Virus record (IMG/VR): IMGVR_UViG_3300027756_000004
Length of the DNA: 64,000 bases
Strand: one strand, 5' to 3'
DNA from: a virus
Positions 8,401 to 38,280 of the stretch are shown piece by piece (the stretch's first letter is position 1; every line of letters begins with the position of its first letter). A model generated the notes under the pieces. It searched no databases, had not been told where the DNA came from, and was given only the letters and a program-made list of their open reading frames with translations. The translations under genes and the position numbers were made by a program.

Positions 8401-8404
8401 CCAT

Positions 8405-12645: not shown

Positions 12646-13794
12646 TTATTTTTTTAACAATTTAGATTGTTTACTCTTGTGGTCAGCCCAACTGCGATTG
12701 GTCCATGGAGATTCTTTGTATTCCACGTTTTTGGCTTTGATCACATAACGATCAGGCACAGTGTCATGCAATATCATTTTTTTATTCACCACAGCATCTC
12801 GCAACATGATCTGATGTAAAAAATTTGTCACAGGTTTACCAGGCACAAAGTCGCACCAAGGTCCACACTGCAGTTGTTCCAAATCAATGGTCTTAGGATC
12901 ACTCCATTGTATAATTCTATGAGTTATGCCATTGATATTCACCATGTAATGATAAAGATTATCATCTGCTGAAGTTTTCTCCCAAGTCCAACCTTTGCGA
13001 TCACAGATAGATTTTATCAATGCCACGTGATCACTGAGAAAGAATCTAGGTTCATTGGGAGATCTGCCTATGTCGGAACCTGCTCTAATCCTATACTGCC
13101 AACTTTTTTGACCCAAAGATTGAATTTCTTCCAACACCTCTTCCATATGATCCAAACTTTCCAATGTATATCCCACATAGTACACAAATATACCTTCGGC
13201 AATACAGTTGTCTATGCCTTGCAGTTGTTTCTGATGCACTGTGTGACCTTGATATGTGTGATGATTAACACCGATCATCACCATGTTGGCACCAGCAGCA
13301 GCGATCTCTTTGACCCATGATTTATCAGATAATTTTACTCCATTGGTGAGTATGCACACATCTGTGGGTCTCCCTAATCTTTGCAATAATTTTTTTATTT
13401 CTGCTATAAGTTCAGGAAGATCCTTACGCACTGTGGGCTCAGCGCCTGCCAATATCACAGCACCAGATTCTGCATGAAATTTTTCTTCAATTTGTTCACA
13501 GATACTTTCTATGGATCGATCCGTTAGTTTGTTATCAGGTTTATGGTAACAATGAGGACAATTTAAATTGCATCGATCAGTGACCTCCACCATGATGCCA
13601 TGTGGTATGGTGTATCCTTCCACATCATAATGCAGTTGCTGATAAAATTCAATATCTCGTTCCACCATGTGCTGCATCACTCCATGTTCTTCGCAGGTTT
13701 TTACAAGATATACTCCGTCCGCACGTGTGACACGTTCTGCTGCACAATGTCTATAACAAGTTTCACACAAACTGATTGTTTTGATATCTTCCAT
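12646..13794 (-). CDS. Radical SAM protein with an N-terminal CxxC..CxxH metal-binding domain (Tes/MJ0619-like architecture)
   Basis: SLCETC...VYLVKTCEEHG, then EVTDRCNLNCPHCY, GAEPT and TNG. Confidence 0.8.
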   Translation of the reverse strand: MEDIKTISLCETCYRHCAAERVTRADGVYLVKTCEEHGVMQHMVERDIEFYQQLHYDVEGYTIPHGIMVEVTDRCNLNCPHCYHKPDNKLTDRSIESICEQIEEKFHAESGAVILAGAEPTVRKDLPELIAEIKKLLQRLGRPTDVCILTNGVKLSDKSWVKEIAAAGANMVMIGVNHHTYQGHTVHQKQLQGIDNCIAEGIFVYYVGYTLESLDHMEEVLEEIQSLGQKSWQYRIRAGSDIGRSPNEPRFFLSDHVALIKSICDRKGWTWEKTSADDNLYHYMVNINGITHRIIQWSDPKTIDLEQLQCGPWCDFVPGKPVTNFLHQIMLRDAVVNKKMILHDTVPDRYVIKAKNVEYKESPWTNRSWADHKSKQSKLLKK

Positions 13795-13796
13795 GA

Positions 13797-14486
13797 TTAT
13801 TTGTACAGTGCTATGGCAGCATCTATAAAATCCTTAGGATAATTGTTTCTAAAACTTTCTAAACATAAAATTTGTAATTGATTAAAGTCTGTGGGTGTGT
13901 GCATGTCAATGTGTAGTTCTTTCATCTTAGGCAGCAAAAACGTTCTCCTGTCCAGAGATATGTGACTGAAGTGATCCTGCACTGTGATGAATGGTTCACT
14001 CTTGTGATAACAGAAGAAATAATTAACACTTTTTAATTTGCCTTTCACCACAAAGTAACTGCTAGGGTGTAGACTATATTTGTATAATCCTAATGTTTTG
14101 TGTGCTTGCAGTATCTCCAGCATTTGTTCACGCCAGTTGGGCAGCACTGCATCCATGCCCTGTGTGTGACTCTGTTCCCAAAAATCCACGCCATCAACAC
14201 CAAAGATAATTTTTTTATTGTCATAGTCCAGTTCCAAAATGTCAGGAATGTGTTCTGGAAAATTGTGATGCATCATCAGCAGCATGTCCACTTCTCTCTG
14301 CCATTTTTGTTCCATCAGAATGGGATCCATCACTTCGTTTTGATCTCTGTGATACTCTGTGTCGTTGTGAAACCATTGCACAAATTCTGTTTTATTTTGA
14401 TTGATGAGACTGGTGTACACAAGATTGTTCCTGCACAATCCTTTGCCTGGCACGTCGTTGTAATAGTAATGATAATTTGGTTTCAT
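13797..14486 (-). CDS. Protein-kinase-like fold protein with degenerate catalytic motifs
   Basis: WQREVDML, IPDILELD and LGLYKYSLHPSSYFV. Similar to 24095-24733. Confidence 0.45.
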   Translation of the reverse strand: MKPNYHYYYNDVPGKGLCRNNLVYTSLINQNKTEFVQWFHNDTEYHRDQNEVMDPILMEQKWQREVDMLLMMHHNFPEHIPDILELDYDNKKIIFGVDGVDFWEQSHTQGMDAVLPNWREQMLEILQAHKTLGLYKYSLHPSSYFVVKGKLKSVNYFFCYHKSEPFITVQDHFSHISLDRRTFLLPKMKELHIDMHTPTDFNQLQILCLESFRNNYPKDFIDAAIALYK

Positions 14487-14507
14487 ATTAGAGCGTGTTT
14501 GTGTAAG

Positions 14508-14558
14508 TATTTATGGTCATTCAAAAGGTTCAAAAATAAATGTTTTCACGCATAAGTA
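14508..14558. promoter_or_regulatory. Divergent putative late promoters
   Basis: CATAAATA on the - strand (14508-14515) and CATAAGTA on the + strand (14551-14558). Confidence 0.45.
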
Positions 14559-14565
14559 ATGCATC

Positions 14566-15273
14566 ATGTCGGACAATAAAAAATTATTGGTATTTCATTC
14601 CATTGGCTGGTTTTTATTTTTTATCAGTCTTGTTTTTTTACCACTTGTCACACTGATATGCTCTTTGATTATTGGCTATTTGCTGGCAGTGTTTGGACAC
14701 ATCATAGGATTACACAGGTACTTTACTCATAAAAGTTTTGACACAAATAAATTTTGGCATTATTTTTTACTTTTCTGCAGCAGCATAGTCACTCTGGGTT
14801 CCACTGTGGCATGGACTGCTGTGCATCTCAAACATCACAGATTTTCTGACACAGAACAAGATTCACATTCTCCCAAATACAAAGGACATTTTAAAGTATT
14901 CTTTGGATACTTCTTTGATGCTTATGATGTAGAGCCTAGATATGCTGCACGACTTTTAAAATATCCTGAACACAAATTTGTTCATAAACATTATTTTAAA
15001 TTGTTATCTTTTTATATTGTATTGTTGGCTGTGATTAATCCCATACTAATATTTCCTTTATGGGTATTTCCCACAGTATTGAGTGTTGTCATGGGTGGCA
15101 TAGTGAATGTGTTTAATCATTGGAATGGCGAAGTGTCTGACAGCAAATTAATTGCATGGACTGTGGCTGGTGAGGGATGGCACAAATATCATCACATCAA
15201 TTCCACTGCGTGGCGTAACCCTTCACCGGATTTGTCTGGATTTTTTATAAGACTTATAAAGTCCAATCAATAG
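14566..15273 (+). CDS. Membrane fatty-acid desaturase (delta-9-like)
   Basis: Three His boxes (HRYFTH, HLKHH, GEGWHKYHH), DSHSP, and transmembrane segments. Confidence 0.88.
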   Translation: MSDNKKLLVFHSIGWFLFFISLVFLPLVTLICSLIIGYLLAVFGHIIGLHRYFTHKSFDTNKFWHYFLLFCSSIVTLGSTVAWTAVHLKHHRFSDTEQDSHSPKYKGHFKVFFGYFFDAYDVEPRYAARLLKYPEHKFVHKHYFKLLSFYIVLLAVINPILIFPLWVFPTVLSVVMGGIVNVFNHWNGEVSDSKLIAWTVAGEGWHKYHHINSTAWRNPSPDLSGFFIRLIKSNQ

Positions 15274-15826
15274 GCCATCTGCCGTATTGATCCAATTGTT
15301 GATAGAACACTTCTACATTCACTTTCCAAATGGTCTGTTCAGTTCCTCTGTAAAACATTTCACCACAGTTTTCCAAACAACCTGTTTTGGCTAATATGGG
15401 AGCCCAAGTTCTGTGGACTCTTTGTTGAGTACCCCAACTATTTTTGTTTGAAGTGATATAAAAATTTTTATCTTTGCCAGCCCATTCTATACCAGCAGTC
15501 ATAAAAAATTGAGGACTCACATGCTGATGTTCTACAATGCCTGTTCTGGTTCTTACTCTTTTTATGGGCATGCGATCTGTGAACGCACAAGATCTCACAG
15601 CAATACGAAAACAATTTGGTCCCATTTCATCAAAACTGTGAGCAGCAGTGGTACCAACTATTTCATTGTTGTAATAGAGAATCCAAACACGTGAAAGTCT
15701 TTCTGTGGAGACACTATCCACCAACATTTTTTTGCTGCTGTTGTTTTTAAATCCTCTGGATTCTGCTTGAAGATAAAATTCTGTCAAATCAATTGATTCA
15801 GAATATGGTACCAATTTGTAATTCAT
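15254..15826 (-). CDS. Hypothetical protein, possibly GNAT-like acyltransferase
   Basis: 190-aa ORF. VWILYYNNEIVG..FRIAVRS pattern resembles GNAT beta strands. Confidence 0.45.
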   Translation of the reverse strand: MNYKLVPYSESIDLTEFYLQAESRGFKNNSSKKMLVDSVSTERLSRVWILYYNNEIVGTTAAHSFDEMGPNCFRIAVRSCAFTDRMPIKRVRTRTGIVEHQHVSPQFFMTAGIEWAGKDKNFYITSNKNSWGTQQRVHRTWAPILAKTGCLENCGEMFYRGTEQTIWKVNVEVFYQQLDQYGRWPIDWTL

Positions 15827-15842
15827 AAATTATTTTGTCCAC

Positions 15843-15862
15843 AATATTTAACACTAAATATT
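15843..15862. promoter_or_regulatory. Back-to-back divergent late-type promoters (inverted repeat)
   Basis: AATATTTA-acac-TAAATATT between divergent starts at 15826 and 15866. Confidence 0.55.
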
Positions 15863-15865
15863 TGG

Positions 15866-16672
15866 ATGATTAGAGGAATTGGTGGCCGACCATATATTGA
15901 CTTAACTCCACATTTGGACATAGAAGGTTTCAAAAATTTGCATCCTGAAATCTGCAGAGGTTTTGCCTTGGCTAGAGATTATGCCAAAGAAGGCACATGG
16001 ATGTCACCAGGATTCAACATCAAAGACATGAGTTATACTCTCAATTGGAAACCAATTTATCAAGCACTCACAGAATACAAGGCGTTGCCAGAAAACCATC
16101 CCATAAGACAGCACGGCGATGATTTGATGAACAATATCAAAGACTACCGCACACGCAATCAATTCACACGCTATCTCAAAGCAGTACTGGGTGCAAAAGA
16201 TCCTTATATCTATTATTTCCTATGGAATGAAGGTGACTGGGATCATAGGAACACAGAAAGACATTTAACAGAAGAAAGCAAACATTTTCCTGGATTAGTC
16301 ACATGGGTAAAAAATTTAGTCACACAGAACATAATCAGTCAGATAGGCAGAGTGATATTCTTTCACTGTGAACATGATGGACAACCTTTTGAACACAGAG
16401 ATCTGGATGGCAAACTGGGTGATCAACAGGGCTACAGTGCTCATCGCAATGAATTCATACACATACGTCACAATACCAAGAGAGGATTTTACATTTGGGA
16501 TCCTGAAACAAAAAACAAAACCTACATCAATGCCAATGCAGCTTTCTGGAACGATCAAGACTGGCATGGTGGAGAAATCAATCGTGAACAAGAGTATGGA
16601 TTGAGAATTGACTGTGTATTCACCGATGCATTTAGAAAAAAATTAGGCATAGAACATCTACACAATTACTAA
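15866..16672 (+). CDS. Putative 2OG-Fe(II)/DSBH oxygenase
   Basis: GRVIFF..FEHRD (HxD), distal WHG and LRID. Confidence 0.55.
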   Translation: MIRGIGGRPYIDLTPHLDIEGFKNLHPEICRGFALARDYAKEGTWMSPGFNIKDMSYTLNWKPIYQALTEYKALPENHPIRQHGDDLMNNIKDYRTRNQFTRYLKAVLGAKDPYIYYFLWNEGDWDHRNTERHLTEESKHFPGLVTWVKNLVTQNIISQIGRVIFFHCEHDGQPFEHRDLDGKLGDQQGYSAHRNEFIHIRHNTKRGFYIWDPETKNKTYINANAAFWNDQDWHGGEINREQEYGLRIDCVFTDAFRKKLGIEHLHNY

Positions 16673-16679
16673 AATCTTC

Positions 16680-17291
16680 ATGTATCATCGCTATATTAAA
16701 TTACCAGTCAGCCATAAAAAGCCCATGTGTTTCGATACACAGCCCACTGAGCCCACAGTGATATTTGTGAATAAAGAATATATCGATTATAGCGTGGTAA
16801 AATGCATAGAATCTTTTGGAGCGATTGTATCCAACGTGACTGAGGGTATCTACACACCACCTAATCATAAAAAATTACATATTCATAATGATACAAATAC
16901 AATAACAAATGCCACTAAAATAAATTTTACTTGGGGACCTAACAACAGTGTTACTAGGTGGTGGAAGGTTAAAGATAAGATGTCACTCAAAATAGATGTG
17001 ACAGATAGTACCCATATTTTACAATCAGTTGATCCTGATATTGTTGGCAGTTTCGATGCACAAAAAAACCACAGTGAACTTTATTGTGAAGATGAGAACC
17101 TTTGCGATCTTGTGTGTGAAAGAGTTATTGATCGCCCCAGTTTAATTAATGTGGGACAACTACACTCCACTTACAATCCACACGCTACAGAGGGGCGTTG
17201 GACACTGTGTTTTTTCTTGTTAAAATCAGACTACACACACCTACAGTTTGATGAAGCAGTAGAAATATTTAAGGACATAGCACATGAATAA
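16680..17291 (+). CDS. Putative 2OG-Fe(II)/DSBH oxygenase, tandem paralogue 1
   Basis: IHND, INFTWGP, NVGQLHS and RWTL. Confidence 0.6.
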   Translation: MYHRYIKLPVSHKKPMCFDTQPTEPTVIFVNKEYIDYSVVKCIESFGAIVSNVTEGIYTPPNHKKLHIHNDTNTITNATKINFTWGPNNSVTRWWKVKDKMSLKIDVTDSTHILQSVDPDIVGSFDAQKNHSELYCEDENLCDLVCERVIDRPSLINVGQLHSTYNPHATEGRWTLCFFLLKSDYTHLQFDEAVEIFKDIAHE

Positions 17292-17910
17292 AAACATGTA
17301 TCACAGATATCTAAAGATTCCATTTGAACACATTAAACCTGTTTGTTTTAGTGAACAACCTTCAAAAATGCGTGGGACTAATTGGCATGAAGAAGTTATT
17401 ACACAGGAGCATTGGGATATTCGCTTTGTTGAATGGTTAAACAATTACAATTTAAAACCATCTAATATTTGTGAAGCATTTTATAATAGTCCTTCTGGAG
17501 GAGGATTACCAATTCACAATGATACACCAGATATAAGCAATTCCGTAAATATTAATTTTACTTGGGGTCCACTCACCAGCACCACTAGATGGTGGAAGAT
17601 TAAAGATGAATCTTTAATACAACTAGAAAAAGATAATACGGAATATCATAAAGAATATCTCAAAGGTATACCAGCAGATATACCTCAATACAAATTTTTA
17701 CACGCTGATGAAAAAGAGTGTGATCTAGTGTACGAACAGGTCATTAATAAACCCAGTCTAATGAATGTAGGACAACTACACTCAACCTATAATCCACATT
17801 TTAGCGAATGTCGTTGGACTTTGAGCTATCACATACTGAGCCAAAAAGATGGTCGGCACATTCAGTTTGATGAAGCACTAGAAATATTTAAGGACGTTGC
17901 ATATGAATAA
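17284..17910 (+). CDS. Putative 2OG-Fe(II)/DSBH oxygenase, tandem paralogue 2
   Basis: Same motifs, with an ATGAATAA overlap. Confidence 0.6.
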   Translation: MNKNMYHRYLKIPFEHIKPVCFSEQPSKMRGTNWHEEVITQEHWDIRFVEWLNNYNLKPSNICEAFYNSPSGGGLPIHNDTPDISNSVNINFTWGPLTSTTRWWKIKDESLIQLEKDNTEYHKEYLKGIPADIPQYKFLHADEKECDLVYEQVINKPSLMNVGQLHSTYNPHFSECRWTLSYHILSQKDGRHIQFDEALEIFKDVAYE

Positions 17911-18511
17911 AAACATGTATCACAGATACCTTACTTTGCCTTTTGAGCACAGCATGCCCAAGTGTTACAATACTGAACACAATGATGTGGATTATCACGT
18001 GCAATTTGTACAAAAAGAATGGTGGGATCTGCGTTTTGTTGAATGGTTAAAAAAATATCAACTTAAACCTTCAAATGTATCTGAAGGTTTTTATGTAAGG
18101 CCCAATGGCGGTGGATTACCCATTCATAATGACAGTGCTGTGCTGAGTAATATTGTTAACATTAATTTTACTTGGGGTCCACTCACTAGCACCACTAGAT
18201 GGTGGCAACTAAAAAATGGATCATCATTTGAGATAGAGTTGCCAGAAAACACTCACATCACAGAGCAAAAAATTAAGCCCGATGTAAATATTAAACAGTA
18301 TCTTAGAGCACGTGAAGAAGAGTGTGACCTAATGTATGAACAAGTGATTCATACACCCAGTCTAATGAATGTGGGACAATTACACAACACCCATAATCCT
18401 GATACAAAAATGGGTCGCTGGACTCTAAGCTACATTATACTCAAATCTGACAATACGCATTTGCAATTTGAGGAAGCGTTAAAAATATTTAAGGATGTAG
18501 CATATGAATAA
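17903..18511 (+). CDS. Putative 2OG-Fe(II)/DSBH oxygenase, tandem paralogue 3
   Basis: Same motifs. ATG at 17903 in an ATGAATAA overlap. Confidence 0.6.
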   Translation: MNKNMYHRYLTLPFEHSMPKCYNTEHNDVDYHVQFVQKEWWDLRFVEWLKKYQLKPSNVSEGFYVRPNGGGLPIHNDSAVLSNIVNINFTWGPLTSTTRWWQLKNGSSFEIELPENTHITEQKIKPDVNIKQYLRAREEECDLMYEQVIHTPSLMNVGQLHNTHNPDTKMGRWTLSYIILKSDNTHLQFEEALKIFKDVAYE

Positions 18512-19106
18512 ACACATCTATCATAGATACTTAAAACTTCCTTTTGAATATAAAAAACCTAATAGGTTTAATTGCAGTTACGTTCATCCTAATATAATTG
18601 TAGTATTGCGAGAGGAAATTGATGATACAATAATTAAATGGATTGAATCGTTCAATCTACATGTGTCCAACGTGATTGAAGGATTTTATACTCCAGTGAA
18701 TGGTGGAAAGATACCCATGCACAATGACACTCCTACACTGCGCAATGCAACAAAAATAAATTTTACTTGGGGACCTAACAACAGTGTGACTAGGTGGTGG
18801 CGTGTAAAAAATTTAGAATTTTTAAAACCAGTTAAACCTGACAATAGTCACTTGTATGAGACAGGAATAAAGCCTGACATTGTGGTCACAGATGCATTTA
18901 CAGCACGTGAAGAAGATTGTGTTATGGTGCATGAACAAGTGATTAATCGACCCAGTCTAATGAACATAGGTCAACTGCACAGCACATACAATCCTGATAT
19001 GACTGAAGATCGTTGGACATTGTGTTTTACTTTGCTGCACCCCAACGGTCGTCATGTGGAATTTGAAGAAGCACTTGAAATATTTGAAAGTTTTATTGAT
19101 GAATAG
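18504..19106 (+). CDS. Putative 2OG-Fe(II)/DSBH oxygenase, tandem paralogue 4
   Basis: MHND, INFTWGP, NIGQLHS and RWTL. Confidence 0.6.
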   Translation: MNKHIYHRYLKLPFEYKKPNRFNCSYVHPNIIVVLREEIDDTIIKWIESFNLHVSNVIEGFYTPVNGGKIPMHNDTPTLRNATKINFTWGPNNSVTRWWRVKNLEFLKPVKPDNSHLYETGIKPDIVVTDAFTAREEDCVMVHEQVINRPSLMNIGQLHSTYNPDMTEDRWTLCFTLLHPNGRHVEFEEALEIFESFIDE

Positions 19107-19641
19107 AATTATTAGACTCACGTGTCCCAAACACAGTGATAGAAAATACATGTCCGCACAAAATGACAACTACATCAATAAATTAGAGGTGTATCATAAC
19201 ACACAAAAAATATTTGCCAACATCAATGATGCTGAGGAAAATCTACCTATCATGTTGGAAAAATCAATTGTGTTGGATGCAAATCACACACAGATGTTTG
19301 AATTCAATTATTTTATACGTTTTCATTCTGTGGAAGAATATGCCAAAATAAAATGGACTATTAAGCCTGTTAATTATTTGTATGAAAGTCATATTCAGTT
19401 GCTGAGATTGAACCATGTGGAAGGCAGCGAACATGTGTCAGACGACTATTGTATCACTGTGCGTTGCAATCAGTTTGTTTATAAAATTGGCAAAGAATAT
19501 CATCAAGCAGTAAACCCAGCAATTAATTTCAAAGATCTAGTGGACGTCAACGGATACTGTTGCTTCAGTGTGGAAACCAAAAAAGTGTTTAAAAATTCAC
19601 CCATCACCACATACGATCATTTGCAATTGGAAATACTATAA
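19099..19641 (+). CDS. Hypothetical protein
   Basis: ATG 19099 overlaps the previous stop (ATGAATAG). Confidence 0.65.
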   Translation: MNRIIRLTCPKHSDRKYMSAQNDNYINKLEVYHNTQKIFANINDAEENLPIMLEKSIVLDANHTQMFEFNYFIRFHSVEEYAKIKWTIKPVNYLYESHIQLLRLNHVEGSEHVSDDYCITVRCNQFVYKIGKEYHQAVNPAINFKDLVDVNGYCCFSVETKKVFKNSPITTYDHLQLEIL

Positions 19642-19649
19642 TTACTGCT

Positions 19650-20750: not shown

Positions 20751-20751
20751 T

Positions 20752-23550: not shown

Positions 23551-23553
23551 TAA

Positions 23554-25397: not shown

Positions 25398-25402
25398 GTT
25401 TA

Positions 25403-25446
25403 TACTTATCGTAAAATATTACGTGGCCATTTGATATAGGTAAATA
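25403..25446. promoter_or_regulatory. Divergent putative late promoters
   Basis: GATAAGTA on the - strand (25403-25410, 5 nt from the ATG) and GTAAATA on the + strand (25440-25446). Confidence 0.45.
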
Positions 25447-25459
25447 TTCAGTCCATACT

Positions 25460-30148: not shown

Positions 30149-31409
30149 AATCAGCAAACTCCGGATTTATTTTTTCAAATGGACCTTGATTTCTTGTGAT
30201 GTCTAATTTGCGATTAAAGTCCACACAATCCGCCCAGTATTGATTAAGATCTCTGGCTTTTAAAAAATTAATGTTGTCCTGTATTTGTTGTAAAGTAATT
30301 TTTTCCAATATTGGATGTTGTTTAATTAAAGCATAGTCTTTTATTAGAGGTTTCATTGCTTCCAGTTTGTCTATCACTTGATTTTTTAATTTTGTAGGTA
30401 ACACTTGTGCATTCAATGCTCTGGGATAAGTGACTCTATGACTGTAAAACACAATGCCCAAATCATTTAAAAAATAATCAATCACACGGTCTATTTGCAA
30501 GATATTATTGGCTTGCACTGTGAATGCTCCCACTATTCTGCTCACTGTGGGTATTTGTTTTATAATTTTGATGTTGTTGACCACATCCATAAATTTGCCA
30601 TTGCCTCTTATATATTCGTAAGTGTCAAAGATTCCATCAATACTCACATTCACTGCTACACTTTTAAACTTGGGCCAATACTCTTGTATGGTTCTGCCAC
30701 CTTTGATGCCCAATATTGTGCCGTTGGTGGCATATTTAAGTTCAATGTTGGATCCATTGGTGCTCAATAAATCTAATATTTTGTAATGTGTGGGATCCAT
30801 CAAAGGTTCACCACCAGCAAACTCAACACGTTTAAAATGAGGAATAAGTTTTTTTAAATTGTCCCAAAAATGTGGCTTGTCTTCAAACAGATCCACATGC
30901 GGCGCTTGTGTCAAACCTAGATCCTCTACGGCCTTAACCAAATAATTGCCTTCTTTTTTGTAGTGATCCACTATGCTGTTCCAATCTTTCCATTGTGTGC
31001 TGTCCAGTGGATTACACATACGACATTTTAAATTGCAAAGATTGTTAATTTTAATTTCCATAGTGGGCAATTCAAAAGGCATGGAGTAATCTTGCTGTAA
31101 ATTGTCCAATGCAGTGGGATATAGATTAATTCTTGATTCTGGTGTAGCATCACTGATGTGTCTCAGTCTTAAACTTTGCACTCCTTGATCTTCTAAATCA
31201 AAGCAGGGCGCACACACATCTGGTTTTTCATTGTTTAGCACTTGACGTCGAACCTGTTTCATTTTTTCATTGTTCCATGCTTGTTCCATGGTTTCATGCT
31301 GTATGTTGCCAATAGGCAAACTTCTGCAACACACTTTAATAGCACCATCTTCTCTAGTAGCAAGACCTGTAAATGGATGCATGCAAAATGTACAACTGTT
31401 ATTTTTCAT
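30141..31409 (-). CDS. Radical SAM protein with an N-terminal twitch domain
   Basis: CMHPF..DGAIKVCC..CAPC, CNLKCRMC and FAGGEP. Confidence 0.88.
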   Translation of the reverse strand: MKNNSCTFCMHPFTGLATREDGAIKVCCRSLPIGNIQHETMEQAWNNEKMKQVRRQVLNNEKPDVCAPCFDLEDQGVQSLRLRHISDATPESRINLYPTALDNLQQDYSMPFELPTMEIKINNLCNLKCRMCNPLDSTQWKDWNSIVDHYKKEGNYLVKAVEDLGLTQAPHVDLFEDKPHFWDNLKKLIPHFKRVEFAGGEPLMDPTHYKILDLLSTNGSNIELKYATNGTILGIKGGRTIQEYWPKFKSVAVNVSIDGIFDTYEYIRGNGKFMDVVNNIKIIKQIPTVSRIVGAFTVQANNILQIDRVIDYFLNDLGIVFYSHRVTYPRALNAQVLPTKLKNQVIDKLEAMKPLIKDYALIKQHPILEKITLQQIQDNINFLKARDLNQYWADCVDFNRKLDITRNQGPFEKINPEFADYV

Positions 31410-32010
31410 TTTTCTTTCCTACAATCATAAATCTTTTGTATTTCTCTGTTTGTAATTCACTGGGTTCTACTATAGGATACAATTTACTTTGTGCAACAAA
31501 CTGATTTAAATCTTTCATAGGATTCACATGTTCAGGAATCACATAGTCATTGCTTTGCAACACTATAATTTTATCATTAGGTATCAATTTGAGCCATTCA
31601 TTGTATTGTTCTTGGGTGAGATGTTCGCACACTGTGTTGATAATCATGTCATAACGATCATAATCTTTGTATGAAAGCATATTGGCAGTAATGGCATTGA
31701 ACTTGCCTGAAATTTCATACTGTTTGTTCATGGTATGAGCAATGCTTTTACATTTATGGTCTATGTCTATGCTGGTAATCTTGTTCACATACAGATCACT
31801 GTTGAACAACAGTGTGGCCATCACACCATACCATCCGCCACAGATTAAAATGTCCATGCTGTGTGCTCTGGGTAATTTTTTTAATTGTTCAATCAACCAT
31901 ACTTTGCTGTTGATTTGACCTTTCCAGAAACTTTCCAGTGTGCGATATCTATCATCAGACTGTCTGATAGCATCCATCCAAAATAAAACGTCTTGTATAT
32001 TAATTTTCAA
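31399..32010 (-). CDS. Class I SAM-dependent methyltransferase-like protein
   Basis: ILICGGWYG motif I, SIDID and INTVCEH. Start uncertain (TTG 32010 proposed). Confidence 0.65.
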   Translation of the reverse strand: MKINIQDVLFWMDAIRQSDDRYRTLESFWKGQINSKVWLIEQLKKLPRAHSMDILICGGWYGVMATLLFNSDLYVNKITSIDIDHKCKSIAHTMNKQYEISGKFNAITANMLSYKDYDRYDMIINTVCEHLTQEQYNEWLKLIPNDKIIVLQSNDYVIPEHVNPMKDLNQFVAQSKLYPIVEPSELQTEKYKRFMIVGKKNEK

Positions 32011-32989
32011 CAAATTGCGCTCCCAGTTTATCAAATGAACCACATTGTTTGGTGCATTCTTTCAATCCCACTGTGCCCCATTGGGATTCGATCTTACTAA
32101 AATAGCCACTATCAAATATTTCCTCCAGCGTTTGACGATGTAAGTTAGGAAATTGCGAAATTTTTTCCATGTAATCTATTCTTGATTCTTGCATAGGGGG
32201 AATCCATTCCATATCCAACCAACAGCAAGGCGACACATTACCACAAGCACTCACATATATCTGTTTGTGCTTTTGTGCTTTACACACTATGTGTGGTCTT
32301 ACTTCTTTTTGTGATTGTTCAATCAATGGAATCATATCAAAACTGGTTTGAGTGGGAGCAATCTTATGTGTGGGTCTACCTTGTTCATCCAACACTTGAT
32401 GAAAATCTGTTTTGAATCTACTAGTGTGCTTGATACTGAAATCTGCAAAGCCCATTTGTTTGCTCATAGCTCTTGCTTGTTCAATTTGATGTTCGTTGTG
32501 AGCAAACACCAACATGTGCCATTTGGCCACTCCCCCTGCTGCGATAAATGCCTCAGCATTCTGCATGATCTTGTCAAAATCTGTGCTGATCCTGTACAAG
32601 TGATTGGTATCTTTCAAACCATCCAATCCAAATGTAACTTTTACCTTTAATTGTGCCAGTCTCTTCCACCAGTCAGTGTCTCTAGCACTGCCGTTGGTGT
32701 GCATGGCCAATCTAATGTAAGGATTAGTGTCTCTAAGATACTGGTAAATTTCCAAAGTGTCTTTGGACACTATAGGATCTCCCAAATTACCACACATGAA
32801 CAAACTGTGTAATTGTTTTACAAATTTTTCTGTGAACCATTGTTTAAATTGTGCCACAGTGATCTCTTCCAACTTGATAAACGGATTCAAAGGACCTCCA
32901 TTGATTCTTCTAGGACACATAGGACATTTGGCCTGACACTTGCTGGTTATTTCCAAGTGAATATCTCTTATGTCTTCATATCTATACAT
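32000..32989 (-). CDS. Radical SAM protein with a C-terminal SPASM/twitch domain
   Basis: LEITSKCQAKCPMC, GNLGDP, HTNG and PCC...C...C. Confidence 0.88.
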   Translation of the reverse strand: MYRYEDIRDIHLEITSKCQAKCPMCPRRINGGPLNPFIKLEEITVAQFKQWFTEKFVKQLHSLFMCGNLGDPIVSKDTLEIYQYLRDTNPYIRLAMHTNGSARDTDWWKRLAQLKVKVTFGLDGLKDTNHLYRISTDFDKIMQNAEAFIAAGGVAKWHMLVFAHNEHQIEQARAMSKQMGFADFSIKHTSRFKTDFHQVLDEQGRPTHKIAPTQTSFDMIPLIEQSQKEVRPHIVCKAQKHKQIYVSACGNVSPCCWLDMEWIPPMQESRIDYMEKISQFPNLHRQTLEEIFDSGYFSKIESQWGTVGLKECTKQCGSFDKLGAQFVEN

Positions 32990-33983
32990 GTCGAGCCTTA
33001 GGTATTTTGCTATCTGCAGAACTCACACAAGTGGGAGTCACACAAATTTTTGGTTTATCAAACAGTTTAAACCCTTGTTCTATACTGCCCAGTGGCTCAT
33101 CATGGCAACTGTAACTGCGTTTGATTTCTCCGCCTGGCTCTCTAATGATACAACTTTGATATCCAGCATTACAGTACCAGCCTTGAAACTTGTTGAAACC
33201 AAAAGCATTAAATCGCTCTGCCTGATCTAGATAGTACTTATTGCCTTGTGCGTCTTGCATTTCGATTTGAAATAGATCCTTGTATTTTTCACCTTCCTGT
33301 ATGCGTTGTGGAAATCCTGTCTGCAATGTGTTCAATTGTGCAGCACTGTAACCCTCTACCACATGACTGGCAGTGGGATCACTCTGTGGTTTCAGCGTGA
33401 CGTTGATGCCTCTGGAATGGAATCTAGCACATCTGTCATAGTATTCTTCAAATCTATTGGGCACCATCACTTGATTGATTGTGACAAACACATTGTTCTT
33501 CATCAACAGCAATATTTTATCTCCAAATTTTTGTTCGTCTGAAAATTCTGCATGAAAACTGGCAGTGATGCTGCGACGGTTCAATGACTTTGTAGCTTCC
33601 AACCATCGATGCCACCATTTTTCCGAAGGACTAAGGTTGGTGGTCATGTGAATACTCTGATATTCTGGAGCAGTATCAGCACTGTAGTGTTTGATCAACT
33701 GTAAAAAATCTTTGTAGGCAGTGGGTTCTCCGCCTGAAAAACTGAAATGATAGTCTGTGAATCCATTCTGTCTAGCCTGTCGTTTGATTTCATCCACCAC
33801 TGCTGTGTAGACAGCCAGTGGTCTGTGGTCTTTTTGCTTGCTCTTGGCATAAGGCCAACAGTATGAGCAATCATAGTTGCAAAATCTTGCTAGTATCCAG
33901 CTCACAGAAAATAATTTGCTGTGCAACATGGTGCGTTGTCCAAAGTTTGTGATGCGATCAAATGGAATGTTGGTGTCTATCAT
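32982..33983 (-). CDS. Radical SAM protein with a C-terminal twitch-like domain
   Basis: CNYDCSYC, SGGEPT, TTN and C-terminal Cys residues. ATG 33983 overlaps the upstream TGA. Confidence 0.88.
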   Translation of the reverse strand: MIDTNIPFDRITNFGQRTMLHSKLFSVSWILARFCNYDCSYCWPYAKSKQKDHRPLAVYTAVVDEIKRQARQNGFTDYHFSFSGGEPTAYKDFLQLIKHYSADTAPEYQSIHMTTNLSPSEKWWHRWLEATKSLNRRSITASFHAEFSDEQKFGDKILLLMKNNVFVTINQVMVPNRFEEYYDRCARFHSRGINVTLKPQSDPTASHVVEGYSAAQLNTLQTGFPQRIQEGEKYKDLFQIEMQDAQGNKYYLDQAERFNAFGFNKFQGWYCNAGYQSCIIREPGGEIKRSYSCHDEPLGSIEQGFKLFDKPKICVTPTCVSSADSKIPKARHV

Positions 33984-34684
33984 AAAATTTCTTTCTCCAT
34001 GTGAGGAAATTGTCCCACAAAAGTCAATTTTAACCATTCAAAGTTGTTGATCATTCTCAGTGCTTGCGGATCCAATTGATGTTGCGTTCCATACACTCTG
34101 CCTGCCAATGCTCCTGCTATGGCATACTCCCCATAAGGTTGATCTGCTCCAACAGTGCACCATACATTGAGTCTTTTTTCAGTTTCTTTGTCCACCTGAC
34201 GATCAATCACTTTGCTGCTGAGCTTGACACACTCTCTAAAAGCACTTTTCCAAGAAGCAAAAGGATCTGTGTTGAAGGCAGTGACGTTGGAAATTTCTGG
34301 TATGGCTTTGAATCTATCTGTGATGCTGGTGGTCATGTCTATGCTGTTAACGTTCATCTGCATGGTGAGTCTTTTGGGCAACAATTTTACTCCTCCATAT
34401 CCATATTCTAATTCGTTGATAGGATTTTTGCTTCTCCACACATGCACCACCTCTTGATTGTATTGGTCTGGTGCATAGTCAAAACAAAAACTTGGTTCTA
34501 CCAGTGCATCTGCATCAACCACCCAAAACATCTTGGTCAAAGCCAGCGTGGCTGCAGCAATATGTGCCTGTTGTATGCCTCTCACTCCATGCACTCTCTG
34601 TGATATAGCAAATCTTTGTTTCAACTGCCTATAATTTTGTTCAGCACTGGATTCATTGTAACTGATAAAAAAAATATCGTACAT
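33980..34684 (-). CDS. GT-A fold glycosyltransferase-like protein
   Basis: DIFFISYNE and FWVVDAD (DxD). Paralogue of the next gene. Confidence 0.6.
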   Translation of the reverse strand: MYDIFFISYNESSAEQNYRQLKQRFAISQRVHGVRGIQQAHIAAATLALTKMFWVVDADALVEPSFCFDYAPDQYNQEVVHVWRSKNPINELEYGYGGVKLLPKRLTMQMNVNSIDMTTSITDRFKAIPEISNVTAFNTDPFASWKSAFRECVKLSSKVIDRQVDKETEKRLNVWCTVGADQPYGEYAIAGALAGRVYGTQHQLDPQALRMINNFEWLKLTFVGQFPHMEKEIL

Positions 34685-35592
34685 TATATGGTCTTTCTAA
34701 TAGTTCTAGGTGTATTCACATACAAGTTTTTAAAAAATTCACTTGCTTGAGCATCCAATGGTTCAACGGGAAAGTTCATTTGATGTTGTTTTTTAATTTT
34801 TTCTCCATACAATAAGCATAATTTTTTGGCATCTTCTATATTACACTTGTCATTATTGCTCACACTGCCCCACATCTGATCTAATATTTTAAAATCTCTC
34901 ACTTCTTTAAAGTGCCATGGCGTACATAGTGTCCTATAGCAGCCTTCTCTAGCACCAGCTATGGCCCAAATGCCGTTTTCTACATCCTGACCCACAGTCA
35001 TCCATATCAATAATCTGTGATAGTTCTGCCACCATATGTCTTTGAGGTCTTTGATTCTTAAATTTTTATTGATGCTCATCTTAACTCCTTCTCTAAACCC
35101 TGCTCTCCAGGCCTGTTTGGGAGAACCATTGATATAACTGGTGCTGTAGTTTTCATTGAATTGATATAGTTTATTGAAATAACAAAATTCTACTTCATTA
35201 CTGTCATTACCTGTGTAATTTTCATGGGTTTTCATCTCTTTAACAAATGTTCTTGTCCAAAGTTTCAAACTGCCATTGCCATATTTGAGTCCATTCACAT
35301 TAATATGACCACTCCAACTGAATATCCAACTGGAGTCCATGCCCATTGATTCTAAATCCAATACCACATCTAATATCTTTGGATTAATTTGAGTGTCCCC
35401 ATCCACTGTTAAAAAATATTCTGTGTGAGACAGTTCAGCACAGGCTTTGTGTGCTGTGTCTGATCCTTCTACACCATGCACTCGCTTGGCCCAAGGCACT
35501 ATTTGTTTAAGTGCTGCATAATTTTTTTCGCAGTTGGGCTCGTCATAACTTAAAAATATAATATCACAGTCCTTAATAGCAATCTTATTCAT
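34684..35592 (-). CDS. GT-A fold glycosyltransferase-like protein
   Basis: DIIFLSYDE and FLTVDGD (DxD). ATG 35592 in an ATGAATAA overlap. Confidence 0.6.
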   Translation of the reverse strand: MNKIAIKDCDIIFLSYDEPNCEKNYAALKQIVPWAKRVHGVEGSDTAHKACAELSHTEYFLTVDGDTQINPKILDVVLDLESMGMDSSWIFSWSGHINVNGLKYGNGSLKLWTRTFVKEMKTHENYTGNDSNEVEFCYFNKLYQFNENYSTSYINGSPKQAWRAGFREGVKMSINKNLRIKDLKDIWWQNYHRLLIWMTVGQDVENGIWAIAGAREGCYRTLCTPWHFKEVRDFKILDQMWGSVSNNDKCNIEDAKKLCLLYGEKIKKQHQMNFPVEPLDAQASEFFKNLYVNTPRTIRKTI

Positions 35593-36160
35593 ATACCTTC
35601 TCCAATGAATAATCAAAGATTTTTTTACAATAGATATCCACTTCATGCATAGGTTGATAATCAATGTTTATACTATTTTGATTAATTAAATCAAAAAGAT
35701 TAATTTCAAATACTCTGTCCAACTGAGTAGCATCATACTTTTTGCAACTGTAAAAATTATGTATTCTTTGATTTTGCTCTGACACAATTGTTTTAAGTGT
35801 GTTTTTGAAATCTTCATCCACTGAAAATTCAATCTTGCCTTGTTTTTCAAATATTCTTATAAGGATACCTGTATGATTTGGTGATTTTATAGGCACTCTA
35901 TAAACATCTTTGTTAATTATGGGGTCAATATTATTTTTAGTTAAGCTATTTGCTTTATCTACCACTCCATGCTTGCGAAATTTATAGACTCCTTCGCTGT
36001 ACTGCACTATGTAATTGCTCATAGATTCAATACCCATAATAAATTTTTCTCCCAGTGCCACATCTATAGCAATAGCGTTTAAAGATTTTTGTACAGAACA
36101 TCCTAATATTTTTCCTGATTCAGGATTAAATGTCACATACATGTTATTTGACTCTTTCAT
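35585..36160 (-). CDS. Hypothetical protein
   Basis: ORF in operon order. Start is 36160 or 36142. Confidence 0.6.
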   Translation of the reverse strand: MKESNNMYVTFNPESGKILGCSVQKSLNAIAIDVALGEKFIMGIESMSNYIVQYSEGVYKFRKHGVVDKANSLTKNNIDPIINKDVYRVPIKSPNHTGILIRIFEKQGKIEFSVDEDFKNTLKTIVSEQNQRIHNFYSCKKYDATQLDRVFEINLFDLINQNSINIDYQPMHEVDIYCKKIFDYSLEKVYE

Positions 36161-36992
36161 AATATTTTTTTTCAATAGTTTTTAACAAGTCGTTGCTTAA
36201 AAACTCATCTTCAACATAGTGCAAAAGACCAGTTTGACTGAAATTGCCAATTTTAATATTCATTTGTGCATCAAAGTACACATTTACTTTTTCTAACCAG
36301 TTGTTAGGCACATAATCCCAATTTTGTAAATGTGGTTTCATGTGTGTGAAAGTGATTGAAGGATGTTTGCTGGTAATTTTTCCTGTGACTCCTAATATTT
36401 TACTGGTCAAAGCCACACTGACATCCATGCTGCACCAAGTTTGTTGATCCTTGGGTGTAAATTCTTTATAAAATAAATTAGGATTCTTTACAATGTGAGA
36501 TAATAGATCAACAAATTTATAATTTTCTTTGTTGTGATGATAATAATGCATGCCACAATACAGGTTGGGTAAATCATTGTGGGTAAAAGTTTTGCGATAA
36601 AAATCACTTTCACATGATTCTCCTCTGTAATTTTCTACTTGGCTGGGAAAATACATGGGATAATTTTTTAAATAATTCCACCAATAGCTGATATCACTCA
36701 ACAGCAGCATGTCAGCATCTAAGATTATGGTACGTTCGAATGGTGTGCATTGATATATCTTGTATCTATTCTGAATTTTCCAATCTTGATCTGCAGCTTC
36801 ATCATTGCCTGGAATATCCAACACATGGTCAAACACTTTGTGCATGCTGGGAGTAATGTTTGAATTGGTTATGAGGCATACCTTACTGGTGGGCATTTGA
36901 ATTTTGATGCTCATAGCCAAAGCATAGGCTTGTCTGGCATAGTCTGTGCTGTCATTGTGTTGTGCAAAAATACAAAAGCCCTGTGAGGTCAT
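36144..36992 (-). CDS. Glycosyltransferase-like protein (GT8-like)
   Basis: AYALAMSIK, TPFERTIILDADML (DxD) and THMK. Confidence 0.65.
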   Translation of the reverse strand: MTSQGFCIFAQHNDSTDYARQAYALAMSIKIQMPTSKVCLITNSNITPSMHKVFDHVLDIPGNDEAADQDWKIQNRYKIYQCTPFERTIILDADMLLLSDISYWWNYLKNYPMYFPSQVENYRGESCESDFYRKTFTHNDLPNLYCGMHYYHHNKENYKFVDLLSHIVKNPNLFYKEFTPKDQQTWCSMDVSVALTSKILGVTGKITSKHPSITFTHMKPHLQNWDYVPNNWLEKVNVYFDAQMNIKIGNFSQTGLLHYVEDEFLSNDLLKTIEKKYYERVK

Positions 36993-37840
36993 ACAAAAAT
37001 CTCCTGGTTAATGATATGATCTAAACTGAACTTGTTCATCACATGCAAATTTATGTTTTGGGCTGCTGTCTTCATGTATGCTGAGCCAGTGAACAATGAC
37101 AATTGCCATCTACCTTGATTAAAACTGTCTGCTCTGTCACGATCTGTGATATAATACAATGAATCAGGCAGTCTACGAGGCCATGATCCTTTGGAATTAC
37201 CATTCAACATGTGAATTGCCATGCTAAAAGCAAAGTCATTTCTAAAATTTTGTTCAGGAATCTGCCAGATAAATCTATAATAGGCCCAATGCTCCTTAAT
37301 GTGTGCAATCAGTTCAAACATTTCACGCACTCTATCTGTTTTTTTAAAATAAAACACAGTGGCCCAATACATCTCCATGCCTGTGTCACTGATGTATTTG
37401 ATTTTCCATTCAGGTTTATTAAAATAATTAATATAGATGGACTGTTGGTGTATCAAAAAATCTTCTTTGCTTTGGAAACATTTGAGTAGGTTTTGATTGC
37501 CCACAATATAATCAGTGTCCATCACAATGGTCTCATCATAAGGAGACAGTTTATATGCGGTGGAGCGCAAATGATTCTTCCATAGATCATTAATTTTTGT
37601 TTCAGCACCATTGTAAAAATCTCTATTTTGAAAAATTAATGGTTCTGTCACTGTGATCACTGTGTCAAACACCTGACTGTATTTTTTGTACTGAGTGTGA
37701 AGATGTTCAGTGTTAGAAGTAATTAATGTTACGGGTTTTTTTAAATATTTTTTAACTTGGATTGCTGAAAATATACTTTGTTTGACATAATCCACAGTGT
37801 CATTGTTGTGAGCAAACATCACAACTCCTTGAGATGACAT
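36989..37840 (-). CDS. Glycosyltransferase-like protein (GT8-like)
   Basis: SPYDETIVMDTDY (DxD) and RNDFAFS. Paralogue of the adjacent gene. Confidence 0.65.
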   Translation of the reverse strand: MSSQGVVMFAHNNDTVDYVKQSIFSAIQVKKYLKKPVTLITSNTEHLHTQYKKYSQVFDTVITVTEPLIFQNRDFYNGAETKINDLWKNHLRSTAYKLSPYDETIVMDTDYIVGNQNLLKCFQSKEDFLIHQQSIYINYFNKPEWKIKYISDTGMEMYWATVFYFKKTDRVREMFELIAHIKEHWAYYRFIWQIPEQNFRNDFAFSMAIHMLNGNSKGSWPRRLPDSLYYITDRDRADSFNQGRWQLSLFTGSAYMKTAAQNINLHVMNKFSLDHIINQEIFV

Positions 37841-37844
37841 ACTG

Positions 37845-38183: not shown

Positions 38184-38198
38184 AGCTGTGATATTCAA

Positions 38199-38242: not shown

Positions 38243-38280
38243 ATTAATAAGTTTTTGATTGTAAAGGATTTGGTAAAGTA

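Follow-up and report, generated by a model that had tools for sequence, protein, structure and literature searches.

A conserved glycosyltransferase operon, exchangeable radical SAM cassettes and a variable gene arm beside the tail-fibre genes of a freshwater jumbo phage: a candidate glycan-tailoring system

Results

A composite enzyme island beside tail-fibre genes

The stretch of viral DNA analysed here (the window, 64,000 nucleotides; IMG/VR record IMGVR_UViG_3300027756_000004) carries a dense array of enzyme genes at 12646-37840, next to tail-fibre genes. We defined 33 genes (g01-g33) across 12646-38198, plus g34 (Table 1). An initial annotation had taken the array for one 25-kb tailoring pathway. 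By gene order in related loci, the island is instead a composite of a conserved glycosyltransferase (GT) operon (g33 to g28, extending to g25), mobile cassettes of radical S-adenosylmethionine (SAM) genes and a lineage-specific left arm (g01-g22), and its slot is empty in some relatives. We tentatively read it as a system for making a tailored glycan. The array of tailoring enzymes pointing to a modified glycan and the variability of the block between relatives agree with the initial annotation, as do the boundaries: the Mtd_N fibre-like gene at 11266 lies on the left, and fibre, giant-protein and baseplate genes run from 39256 onward on the right.

By its gene content, the window comes from a large (jumbo) myovirus of freshwater. 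Its genes include three paralogues for tail fibres, one for a gp6-like baseplate wedge protein and one for a virion protein of 4916 aa. The wedge protein is ~35% identical to its counterparts in the jumbo phages Atu_ph07, SCTP-2, PA5oct and XaC1, and a pelagimyophage or T4-like identity was dropped after this comparison. The counterpart of the 4916-aa protein in the Ralstonia jumbo phage RsoM2USA, ORF361, has been found in virions (PMC8504454). A megablast search of GenBank phages with the tail region gave no match, no phage there being close at the DNA level. Related IMG/VR contigs are 48-223 kb long and are rated 13-60% complete, which suggests a genome size of roughly 370 kb. The segment 31399-39300 was present in full in 14 freshwater or lake DNA runs dating from 2017 to 2025. 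The fibre gene at 11266 belongs to the variable region, with orthologues only in the close relatives L002, L004 and L005; GN[VL]TG pentapeptide runs at 11500-11640 (residues ~85-130) give its product repeated N-x-T sequons. The three fibres at 39256-44942 have a common conserved N-terminal domain of ~130 aa.

The glycosyltransferase operon is conserved across distant phages

Related loci, 81 in all, were gathered by scans with g11, with g29 and with a g29-family alignment (A1). The GT operon lies downstream of fibre genes in ~40 IMG/VR loci, several contigs of metagenome-assembled genomes (MAGs) and RsoM2USA, so that the linkage to tail genes proposed initially is kept in relatives. The order fibres-g34-g33-g32-g31-(g30)-g29-[0 to ~6 radical SAM genes]-g28-(g27-g26-g25) is conserved in IMG/VR loci, RsoM2USA and MAG-binned phage contigs. 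Distant relatives keep it at 35-60% identity; in RsoM2USA, the sole match of the g29 protein among 50,697 phage records, it corresponds to ORFs 354-347. There ORF348 and ORF350 form the GT-A pair, ORF349 is a radical SAM gene, and ORF352 and ORF353 form the GT8 pair. In four relatives (L035, L037, L039 and L059) g28 directly abuts the MoxR/VWA block that occupies 7288-11195 in the window, which indicates that g01-g27 fills a slot that can be empty. Relatives also show extra 2.7-kb inserts elsewhere.

The most conserved element of the island is the paralogous pair g28 and g29. The two genes also occur as natural g29-g28 fusions, encoded as single polypeptides (P0141 and P0170). Neither protein has a Pfam family or a PDB sequence match, and a PDB profile search with g29 returned nothing significant. 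Foldseek with the g29 model gave 23 matches at E<=1e-3, and those listed are GT-A glycosyltransferases or related sugar nucleotidyltransferases, at TM values of only 0.2-0.35. They include the GT2-type GT-A enzymes K4CP, RmlT, SpsA, PBCV-1 A64R, SunS and TarP. The motif D88-x-D90 is invariant in the g28/g29 family. From these models, g28 and g29 are predicted to be GT-A-fold (GT2-like) glycosyltransferases. The g29 family comprises at least 8000 protein clusters and matches only unnamed metagenomic proteins.

The second pair, g31 and g32, was assigned by profile. It matched 19 glycogenin chains (E 7e-6 to 7e-4) over residues 3-105, the nucleotide-binding half, and its C-terminal half had no match; in the DxD motif, D92 is near-invariant and D94 invariant. 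By these matches, g31 and g32 are classed as GT8-like glycosyltransferases, and the four DxD glycosyltransferase-like proteins of the initial annotation resolve into two GT8-like and two GT-A-fold proteins. Comparison of the unassigned families by hhalign linked only g31 with g32 and g02 with g17. Downstream of g28, g25-g27 form a semi-conserved extension of the core, present in 25-31 loci. A PDB profile search with g25 returned nothing significant, and its annotated start is too far upstream, orthologues having stops there (32011-32043). The real start of g33 is probably the ATG at 38183, since orthologue alignments begin downstream of the annotated start (38184-38198 being excess). g34 lies outside 12646-37840 and always between the fibres and the GT operon; a PDB profile search with it gave nothing significant.

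Radical SAM cassettes accompany the GT-A pair

All seven proteins initially called radical SAM scored above the PF04055 cut-off (39.9-68.4 bits against 29.5), each with one CxxxCxxC motif. By family model, g21 and g24 are assigned to the N-terminal twitch radical SAM family NF033640, and in both the Pfam SPASM match precedes the radical SAM domain (residues 67-145 in g21 and 9-69 in g24). The true start of g21 is probably near 26885, as orthologues align from residue 34 and 26786-26884 is likely excess. The PP-loop gene g19 heads a cassette with an N-terminal twitch and a small radical SAM gene, the latter described as MoaA/viperin-like, and the same trio occurs in the same order in L001, L003, L004 and L007. 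A second cassette copy, g23-g24, converges on the first (g21 and g24 are 26% identical, g22 and g23 25%); in L007 the PP-loop gene is present in the other copy as well. The genes for N-terminal twitch proteins number from 0 to ~6 among relatives and often lie between g29 and g28, a position that radical SAM genes take in L011, L020, L044, L048 and others. The g24 family comprises 2881 clusters at E<=1e-10 and matches only unnamed metagenomic proteins. In L044 (10924-16827), L068, L070, L071 and L080, five or six tandem N-terminal twitch paralogues directly follow the g29 homologue.

The Atlas neighbours of g19 are viral QueC-like clusters, partly annotated as QueC; no QueC match was found for it in Pfam, NCBIfam or PDB, and a PDB profile search gave nothing significant. 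Inside g19, ~220 nt (25984-26202) were covered at a depth of 340-400 in two lake RNA libraries, with ~1-10 elsewhere, and carry a 2-nt variant. Rfam returned nothing credible at this spot, and the piece could be a stable RNA fragment, a conserved segment from more abundant relatives or an artefact.

The left arm is lineage-specific

The left arm is syntenic only in the close relatives L001-L005, at 42-97% identity. The aminotransferase, amidinotransferase and desaturase named initially were borne out by family matches (g11, g13 and g03). Against NCBIfam BioA/ArgD-like models g11 fell under the cut-off, as did g01 against TrsS and Tes. The g13 match comes in two segments covering both ends of the protein, and H340-C341-C342-T-L-D aligns with the catalytic-Cys region H-C-A-T-L-D of HsvA. 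g03, the only island protein with predicted transmembrane segments, is present only in the window and L005. No Walker A motif was found in any island protein.

Eight HxD..H oxygenases had been proposed; the four tandem paralogues g06-g09 and g12 are firm, g18 is weak and one or two show the motif only. H69-x-D71...H162...R173 is invariant in seven sequences of the g06-g09 family. No Pfam model matched this family and a PDB profile search gave nothing significant. Its AlphaFold2 (AF2) model (pLDDT 78) has a double-stranded beta-helix fold, and the top 50 fold matches are mostly 2-oxoglutarate (2OG) oxygenases (best Z 9.0; Foldseek, VIA), headed in Foldseek by the ribosomal-protein hydroxylases MINA53 and NO66. 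By this fold, g06-g09 are predicted members of the 2OG-Fe(II) oxygenase superfamily. Four copies are present in the window and one in each of L002-L005.

The remaining assignments of the initial annotation, namely a short-chain dehydrogenase/reductase (SDR), a methyltransferase, a QueC-like enzyme, an SGNH protein and two kinase-like proteins, have weak or motif-level matches. For the kinase-like proteins g02 and g17 (hhalign probability 72% to each other), the top PDB profile matches were MAP kinases at E ~0.5, which is not significant, and the QueC-like protein lacks a PDB match. g20 is a window-specific insertion between g19 and g21, which abut in IMG/VR relatives; beyond these relatives it has only weak 25% tblastn matches, in the MAG contigs L061 and L082. 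g04 and g05 diverge from a 39-nt spacer that holds two opposed TAAATA motifs, at 15845-15850 (-) and 15855-15860 (+), and this arrangement is kept in relatives.

Such a mixture may have no single product. The island could be a hypervariable accessory slot with unrelated cassettes, only the GT operon being coherent and the left arm making small molecules of its own, such as modified lipids and guanidino or polyamine compounds, or acting on host metabolism. We consider this improbable. It would fit the six transcription units of alternating orientation, the empty slot in some phages and the differences in content just described: g03 in one relative, g20 without an IMG/VR orthologue, one to four oxygenase copies and the 2.7-kb inserts. 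A class III aminotransferase beside an HsvA/SxtG-like amidinotransferase is reminiscent of small-molecule pathways, lipid chemistry is suggested by the desaturase together with the Tes/MJ0619-like radical SAM protein, and similar mixed clusters of cyanophages have been read as secondary-metabolite or polysaccharide systems (PMC7824862). However, the left arm is kept as a block in L001-L005, all its units have one promoter-like motif in common, and the radical SAM cassettes are tightly tied to the GT-A pair in phages and bacteria.

The same enzymes could also serve protein or peptide maturation, SPASM/twitch radical SAM proteins and oxygenases of the JmjC or prolyl-4-hydroxylase (P4H) type cross-linking or hydroxylating virion proteins or a peptide resembling ribosomally synthesised and post-translationally modified peptides (RiPPs), with GTs glycosylating the modified residues. 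Many peptide-maturase radical SAM/SPASM families appear among the weaker NCBIfam matches, MINA53 and NO66 are the top oxygenase folds, SunS, a peptide S-glycosyltransferase, is among the g29 fold matches, and the module adjoins fibre genes. However, the peptide-maturase matches all lie far below cut-offs, no precursor-like small open reading frame (ORF) or RiPP recognition element was seen, and fold matches do not discriminate substrates. Sugars and nucleotides are the substrates of twitch radical SAM enzymes like BtrN and MoaA, which also counts against this explanation, and we regard it as very unlikely.

Table 1. Features of the island and its surroundings in the window
Feature	Position	Strand	Assignment	Basis and context
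folE	2149-2835		GTP cyclohydrolase I (FolE)	behind sigma70-like promoter, 11/12
QueE-like gene	3198-4058		QueE-like radical SAM	with folE behind sigma70-like promoter
left boundary	11266-12639	+	fibre-like protein	Mtd_N N-terminus (Pfam 4.6e-11); GN[VL]TG repeats; TATAAATA 38 nt upstream
g01	12646-13794	-	radical SAM, N-terminal HMPTM-type zinc ribbon (MJ0619/Tes/TrsS-like)	PF04055 1e-18; PF23545 1.9e-12
g02	13797-14486	-	no assigned family	distant paralogue of g17; TAAATA at -27
g03	14566-15273	+	membrane fatty-acid desaturase/hydroxylase family	PF00487 (FA_desaturase) 7e-11; five transmembrane-like segments; TAAGTA at -13
g04	15254-15826	-		no Pfam or PHROG match
g05	15866-16672	+		no Pfam or PHROG match
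g06-g09	16680-19106	+	four tandem small 2OG-Fe(II) oxygenase paralogues (predicted)	43-57% mutual identity
g10	19054-19641	+	no family match	conserved in L001-L005
g11	19650-20750	+	class III (omega-type) pyridoxal phosphate aminotransferase	PF00202 (Aminotran_3) 1e-38
g12	20752-21339	+	2OG-Fe(II) oxygenase (P4H-like)	PF13640 (2OG-FeII_Oxy_3) 7.8e-9, above cut-off
g13	21336-22406	+	pentein-fold amidinotransferase	PDB profile: HsvA 3e-28, SxtG 1e-24, AGAT and StrB1 ~1e-19
g14-g18	22403-25397	-	leftward operon	TAAGTA at -11 of g18
g14	22403-22957	-	short SDR/epimerase-like, weak	orthologue matches PF01370 (Epimerase) at 9.5e-5
g15	in g14-g18 operon	-	no assigned family	
g16	in g14-g18 operon	-	cupin/HxD..H candidate	
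g17	in g14-g18 operon	-	kinase-like (not significant)	paralogue of g02
g18	24726-25397	-	Asp/Arg-hydroxylase-like, weak	PF05118 5.7e-4, below cut-off
g19	25460-26281	+	PP-loop ATPase, viral QueC-like family (weak)	SGGADS; C-terminal Cys cluster (CxxCxxC); PHROG 1550 at 1.6e-6
g20	26230-26901	+	SGNH/GDSL-like, motif only	G-C-S, G-S-S-N, D-D-L-H blocks
g21	26786-28306	+	N-terminal twitch radical SAM	NF033640 389.5 bits, cut-off 170
g22	28303-29262	+	small radical SAM	PF04055
g23	29252-30157	-	small radical SAM	PF04055
g24	30141-31409	-	N-terminal twitch radical SAM	NF033640 320.2 bits, cut-off 170
g25	31399-32043	-	class I methyltransferase-like, weak	orthologues match Methyltransf_25/31 at ~1e-3
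g26	32000-32989	-	radical SAM with C-terminal SPASM	Pfam
g27	32982-34037	-	radical SAM	Pfam
g28 + g29	33980-35664	-	paralogous GT-A-fold glycosyltransferases (predicted)	31% identity; AF2 pLDDT 75
g30	35585-36175	-	no family match	partly conserved, 14 loci
g31 + g32	36144-37840	-	paralogous GT8 (glycogenin/LPS glycosyltransferase)-like	hhalign probability 99.7%
g33	37845-38198	-	small conserved protein, first gene of GT operon	19 loci; no family match
GT operon promoter region	38199-38241	-	sigma70-type promoter	TTGACT-17-TATAAT (38227-38199), score 11/12; TAAATA just upstream (38241-38236)
g34	38281-39183	-	Thr/Asn/Ser-rich, probably structural	28 loci; TAAATA at -25
4916-aa ORF	45581-60331		virion structural protein	single ORF; phrog_10938

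The core operon and the left arm differ in promoter class

TAAATA or TAAGTA had been reported before every unit start and before structural genes, and this holds. The distance from TAAATA to the annotated start is 11-43 nt for g02, g04, g05, g19, g33 and g34, for the genes starting at 40692, 45557 and 63816, and for the fibre gene at 11266; the motif stands at -23 to -30 of structural genes, and TAAGTA precedes g03 and g18. The enrichment of TAAATA is modest (11 of 57 upstream windows compared to 4.8 in shuffles), and in the whole window it is rarer than expected (39 occurrences, 61 expected). It is kept before all orthologues compared of the fibre gene 39256-40692 (13/13) and of the gene at 44955 (6/6). 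By analogy with the T4 signal TATAAATA, of which only the TAAATA core is seen here, we infer that it may be a late-type signal.

The initial annotation left unreported the sigma70 promoter of the unit g33 to g23, the longest transcription unit of the island. A site scoring at least 10/12 with a 17-nt spacer precedes g33 in 11 of 13 distinct relatives' sequences, compared to 4.4% of random segments. In the overall scan sigma70-like and terminator-like sites were not enriched, and only the site before g33 is supported, by conservation. folE and the MoxR gene, which look early, have a promoter of this type as well, and none of the structural genes has one. In PA5oct, a relative, host RNA polymerase transcribes from TTGAC/TATAATA promoters (PMC7318152). 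Because this sigma70-type promoter is conserved, the core is probably expressed early, or early and late. Judged by its motifs, only the left arm looks purely late, and the late action proposed for the island as a whole thus fits the left arm and not the conserved operon.

Contigs from RNA libraries of four lake metatranscriptomes cover 23-28 of the 30 bins of 19301-39300; they indicate presence in RNA libraries, not timing, strand or level, DNA carry-over being possible and uncovered bins uninformative. g34 is covered end to end in two runs, and the end points of the RNA contigs, in two runs, fall 14-22 nt downstream of its TAAATA, a weak hint that this motif is used.

The GT-A pair has a cellular counterpart in Bdellovibrionia

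In a scan of species genomes, members of the g29 family turned up on Bdellovibrionia chromosomal contigs of up to 3 Mb. In a first context, which includes a 494-kb contig, g29-g28, an N-terminal twitch radical SAM gene and g26-like and g27-like radical SAM genes lie beside MoxR and DUF58 genes. Their products are 37-54% identical to those of the phages, and fibre and GT8 genes are absent there. Since these bacteria carry the GT-A pair and the radical SAM genes without fibre or GT8 genes, the two together appear to form a self-contained unit. A MoxR-type AAA ATPase with a VWA/DUF58-type partner stands beside the GT-A pair both in minimal phage loci (7288-9683 in the window) and on the Bdellovibrionia chromosome (L093, 7535-9843); the neighbours might be linked in function, or their arrangement might be a trace of gene transfer.

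In a second context, seen in three Bdellovibrionales genomes, dnaB is followed by three GT2 genes and then the g29 homologue. On a 1.1-Mb contig (L095, 5905-11002) the order is dnaB-GT2-GT2-GT2-g29-family GT, and the first GT gene overlaps the dnaB stop. In one genome (3-Mb contig) the last GT2 is fused to a g29-like domain. A run of GT2 genes is the usual layout for sequential oligosaccharide assembly.

Discussion

DNA as a possible acceptor

The initial annotation had argued against DNA modification from its timing. This argument is weak, since post-replicative glycosylation of phage DNA has been shown (bioRxiv 10.1101/2023.12.21.572611) and RsoM2USA encodes a gp42-like hydroxymethylase. The four GTs might put a mono- to oligosaccharide on a hydroxylated or hydroxymethylated base, the radical SAM, oxygenase, amine and guanidine enzymes tailoring the adduct. 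Phage pairs of GT-A (TarP/JGT-like) and GT8-like enzymes have been shown experimentally to glycosylate 5-hydroxymethylcytosine (5hmC) in DNA, post-replicatively, and such clusters can adjoin structural genes, viperin-annotated radical SAM genes and APH-like kinases (bioRxiv 10.1101/2023.12.21.572611). The conserved early-type promoter of the GT operon, found also at folE in the window, is consistent with this, and an acceptor on phage DNA would explain why the core is conserved across hosts. FolE and the QueE-like radical SAM protein in the window point to some DNA or RNA base chemistry. Their genes belong to the 7-deazaguanine pathway and lie 21 kb from the QueC-like g19, with no recognisable QueD or DpdA nearby.

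RsoM2USA, the only cultured carrier, has a thymidylate synthase (TS)-family gene that in PDB is closer to T4 dCMP hydroxymethylase (1e-22) than to ThyA (1e-10). This gene (L049, 4608-5444; RsoM2USA_10, record 7607-8443) is annotated 'hypothetical' and lies ~130 kb from the GT module, counted through the ends of the linear record. Its phage relatives include an SP-10 gene annotated as dUMP hydroxymethylase. RsoM2USA also carries a second TS-family gene (242 bits against the family model), and with this combination a hydroxymethylated pyrimidine may be present in its DNA. In five related jumbo phages that lack the GT core, the number of TS genes does not exceed one: Atu_ph07 has none, and in the other four the gene scores 211-419 bits against the family model. 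In Bdellovibrionales, the g29 homologue belongs to an operon that starts with, and overlaps, dnaB. JGT-like proteins of Bdellovibrio are mentioned by Pyle et al.

Several observations oppose a DNA acceptor. No TS-family, Tet_JBP or C5-methyltransferase gene was found in the window, in 15 IMG/VR fragments (13-60% complete) or in the 335-kb phage contig of MAG G016, all of them incomplete genomes; the genome-level TET/JBP search also gave no match in any control genome. The sole TS match of MAG G016 is on an 11.6-kb contig and not on the phage contig. In these same sequences, the combination that marks DNA sugar-hypermodification clusters, GTs together with an enzyme making a hydroxylated acceptor base, was not found. 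None of the island oxygenases matched PF12851, NgTET1 came 43rd by fold (Z 6.2) and the island lacks a P-loop DNA kinase. The co-occurrence of the gp42-like gene and the GT module is that of a single genome, and the dnaB link may be positional only. Weighing both sides, we consider a DNA acceptor rather unlikely, if a serious alternative.

A tailored glycan on a non-DNA acceptor

Given GTs together with sugar-type tailoring enzymes, a modified glycan is the most economical product. The interpretation that we place first, at roughly even odds, is that the island is a modular system assembling and tailoring a glycan whose acceptor is a non-DNA glycoconjugate. The acceptor would possibly, though doubtfully, be the fibres or other virion proteins encoded next door; that it is a host envelope glycan remodelled during a long infection seems unlikely. 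The system would fall into three layers. Its enzyme families, synteny, promoter conservation, GT-A fusion and cellular counterpart are shown by the comparisons above, and the substrates, order of steps and acceptor are our proposal. In the first, the operon of g33, two GT8-like genes, g30 and two GT-A genes, usually followed by g27-g26-g25, would be read from its host-sigma70-type promoter and probably also from upstream late-type TAAATA promoters. Its four soluble GTs would build an oligosaccharide stepwise, the two GT-A domains acting as a pair. In favour of the modular reading stand the g29-g28 fusions, the radical SAM genes found between the two genes, the Bdellovibrionia unit, the run of GT2 genes in Bdellovibrionales and the lack of transmembrane segments in all island proteins but the desaturase. 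In the second, exchangeable cassettes of PP-loop ATPase, N-terminal twitch and small radical SAM genes, inserted next to or between the GT-A genes, would rebuild sugar or nucleotide-sugar donors. In the third, the lineage-specific left arm behind late-type motifs (oxygenase array, aminotransferase, amidinotransferase, SDR-like, SGNH-like and desaturase genes) would add amino, guanidino, hydroxyl or acyl decorations, or make separate products.

A virion acceptor is favoured by the conserved adjacency to the fibres and g34 and by the late-type motifs that the left arm has in common with structural genes. An envelope acceptor is favoured by the early promoter, by soluble sequential GTs as in O-unit assembly and by a long latent period, which is 270 min in RsoM2USA (PMC8504454). 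The virion study of that phage identified abundant bands only (PMC8504454). Marine myophage clusters of GT and radical SAM genes have been given a host-envelope reading (PMC7029224, PMC7824862). Precedents exist both for virus-encoded virion glycosylation and for GT and radical SAM cassettes in the fibre region of marine myophages (PMC7029224, PMC12619734, PMC7824862).

Other observations weigh against a tailored glycan on such an acceptor. Searches of the island turned up neither a nucleotidyltransferase nor a classical NDP-sugar dehydratase nor a DegT-type sugar aminotransferase, and g11 belongs to class III, typical of amino-acid and polyamine chemistry. About one third of the island genes, roughly 12, have no assignable family, Pfam and PHROGs searches giving no match for them at E values as high as 10. 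An early (sigma70-type) promoter, like the one conserved here, is unnecessary for glycosylation of the virion only, and for a host-surface route the island offers neither a flippase nor a ligase nor any other export component. Conservation of the core across phages with presumably very different hosts argues against a host-specific acceptor, and the cellular homologues indicate that the family does not need phage fibres. A search of the fibres for collagen-like or other obvious acceptor repeats found none. Several clues, set out above, point to DNA instead. In a wider version, whose probability we put on the low side, the GT-A pair and the N-terminal twitch/SPASM radical SAM proteins would be a widespread, undescribed module that attaches radical SAM-rebuilt sugars to a phage-made polymer, be it DNA bases or fibres. 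It would have a cellular sister in Bdellovibrionia, and in Bdellovibrionales a g29 homologue would share a transcript with dnaB.

Large aquatic phages carry many GT and radical SAM genes around fibre genes. Here a 25-kb island is reduced to a small module of two GT-A and two GT8 genes and three radical SAM types, with a defined promoter class. As this module also occurs in cultured RsoM2USA and on bacterial chromosomes, the acceptor question is directly testable. Whether the answer is DNA, virion or host, it would give a first function to a family of thousands and to the N-terminal twitch radical SAM family. Should DNA be the acceptor, the module would stand for a chemically new class of DNA hypermodification, carried by jumbo phages that abound in fresh and marine waters and possibly also by a predatory bacterium.

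Comparison with known systems

Twitch radical SAM enzymes of the BtrN and MoaA kind and the streptidine-type amidinotransferase StrB1 resemble the island, which unites twitch radical SAM proteins and a StrB1/AGAT-family amidinotransferase in one cluster with GTs. The island differs in that its twitch is N-terminal (NF033640), its aminotransferase is class III rather than DegT-type and it has no cyclitol enzymes. We know of no characterised reaction for NF033640.

To our knowledge, radical SAM sugar tailoring has no example among phage DNA glycan systems. Those clusters (bioRxiv 10.1101/2023.12.21.572611) and T-even glucosylation resemble the island in their tandem soluble GT-A and GT8-like enzymes, with TarP/PBCV-1 A64R-like structure; the clusters can also neighbour structural genes and show early-type expression. 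In contrast to them, the window and the aquatic relatives examined lack an enzyme producing 5hmC, 5hmU or 5hoC (C5-methyltransferase plus 5mYOX, or a TS homologue), which is found at genome level only in RsoM2USA.

In virion glycosylation systems, virus-encoded cytoplasmic GTs build glycans on structural proteins. Chlorovirus PBCV-1 A64R, one of the g29 fold matches, belongs to capsid glycan machinery. The capsid and tail glycans of mycobacteriophages are a further case of virus-encoded virion glycosylation, as summarised from Freeman et al. 2023 in PMC12619734. The island differs from these systems in the early type of its core promoter and in a far larger, radical SAM-rich enzyme set.

The closest likeness is to the 'host recognition cluster' of pelagimyophages and cyanomyophages (PMC7029224) and to the 'moraphages' with their four core GT orthogroups (PMC12619734), which also have a variable region among the tail-fibre genes of big aquatic myoviruses, GT8-type GTs and movable radical SAM cassettes. 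GT and radical SAM cassettes near aquatic myophage fibre genes, and the four core moraphage GTs, were thus already recorded at annotation level (PMC7029224, PMC12619734, PMC5332604). The window phage, in contrast, is not T4-like by its baseplate wedge protein, and neither PMC7029224 nor PMC12619734 describes the conserved GT operon with its sigma70 promoter, the fused GT-A genes or the counterpart in bacteria. As far as we found, the delineation of the module, its promoter class, the GT-A fusion, the Bdellovibrionia counterpart and the link to a tractable cultured phage are new.

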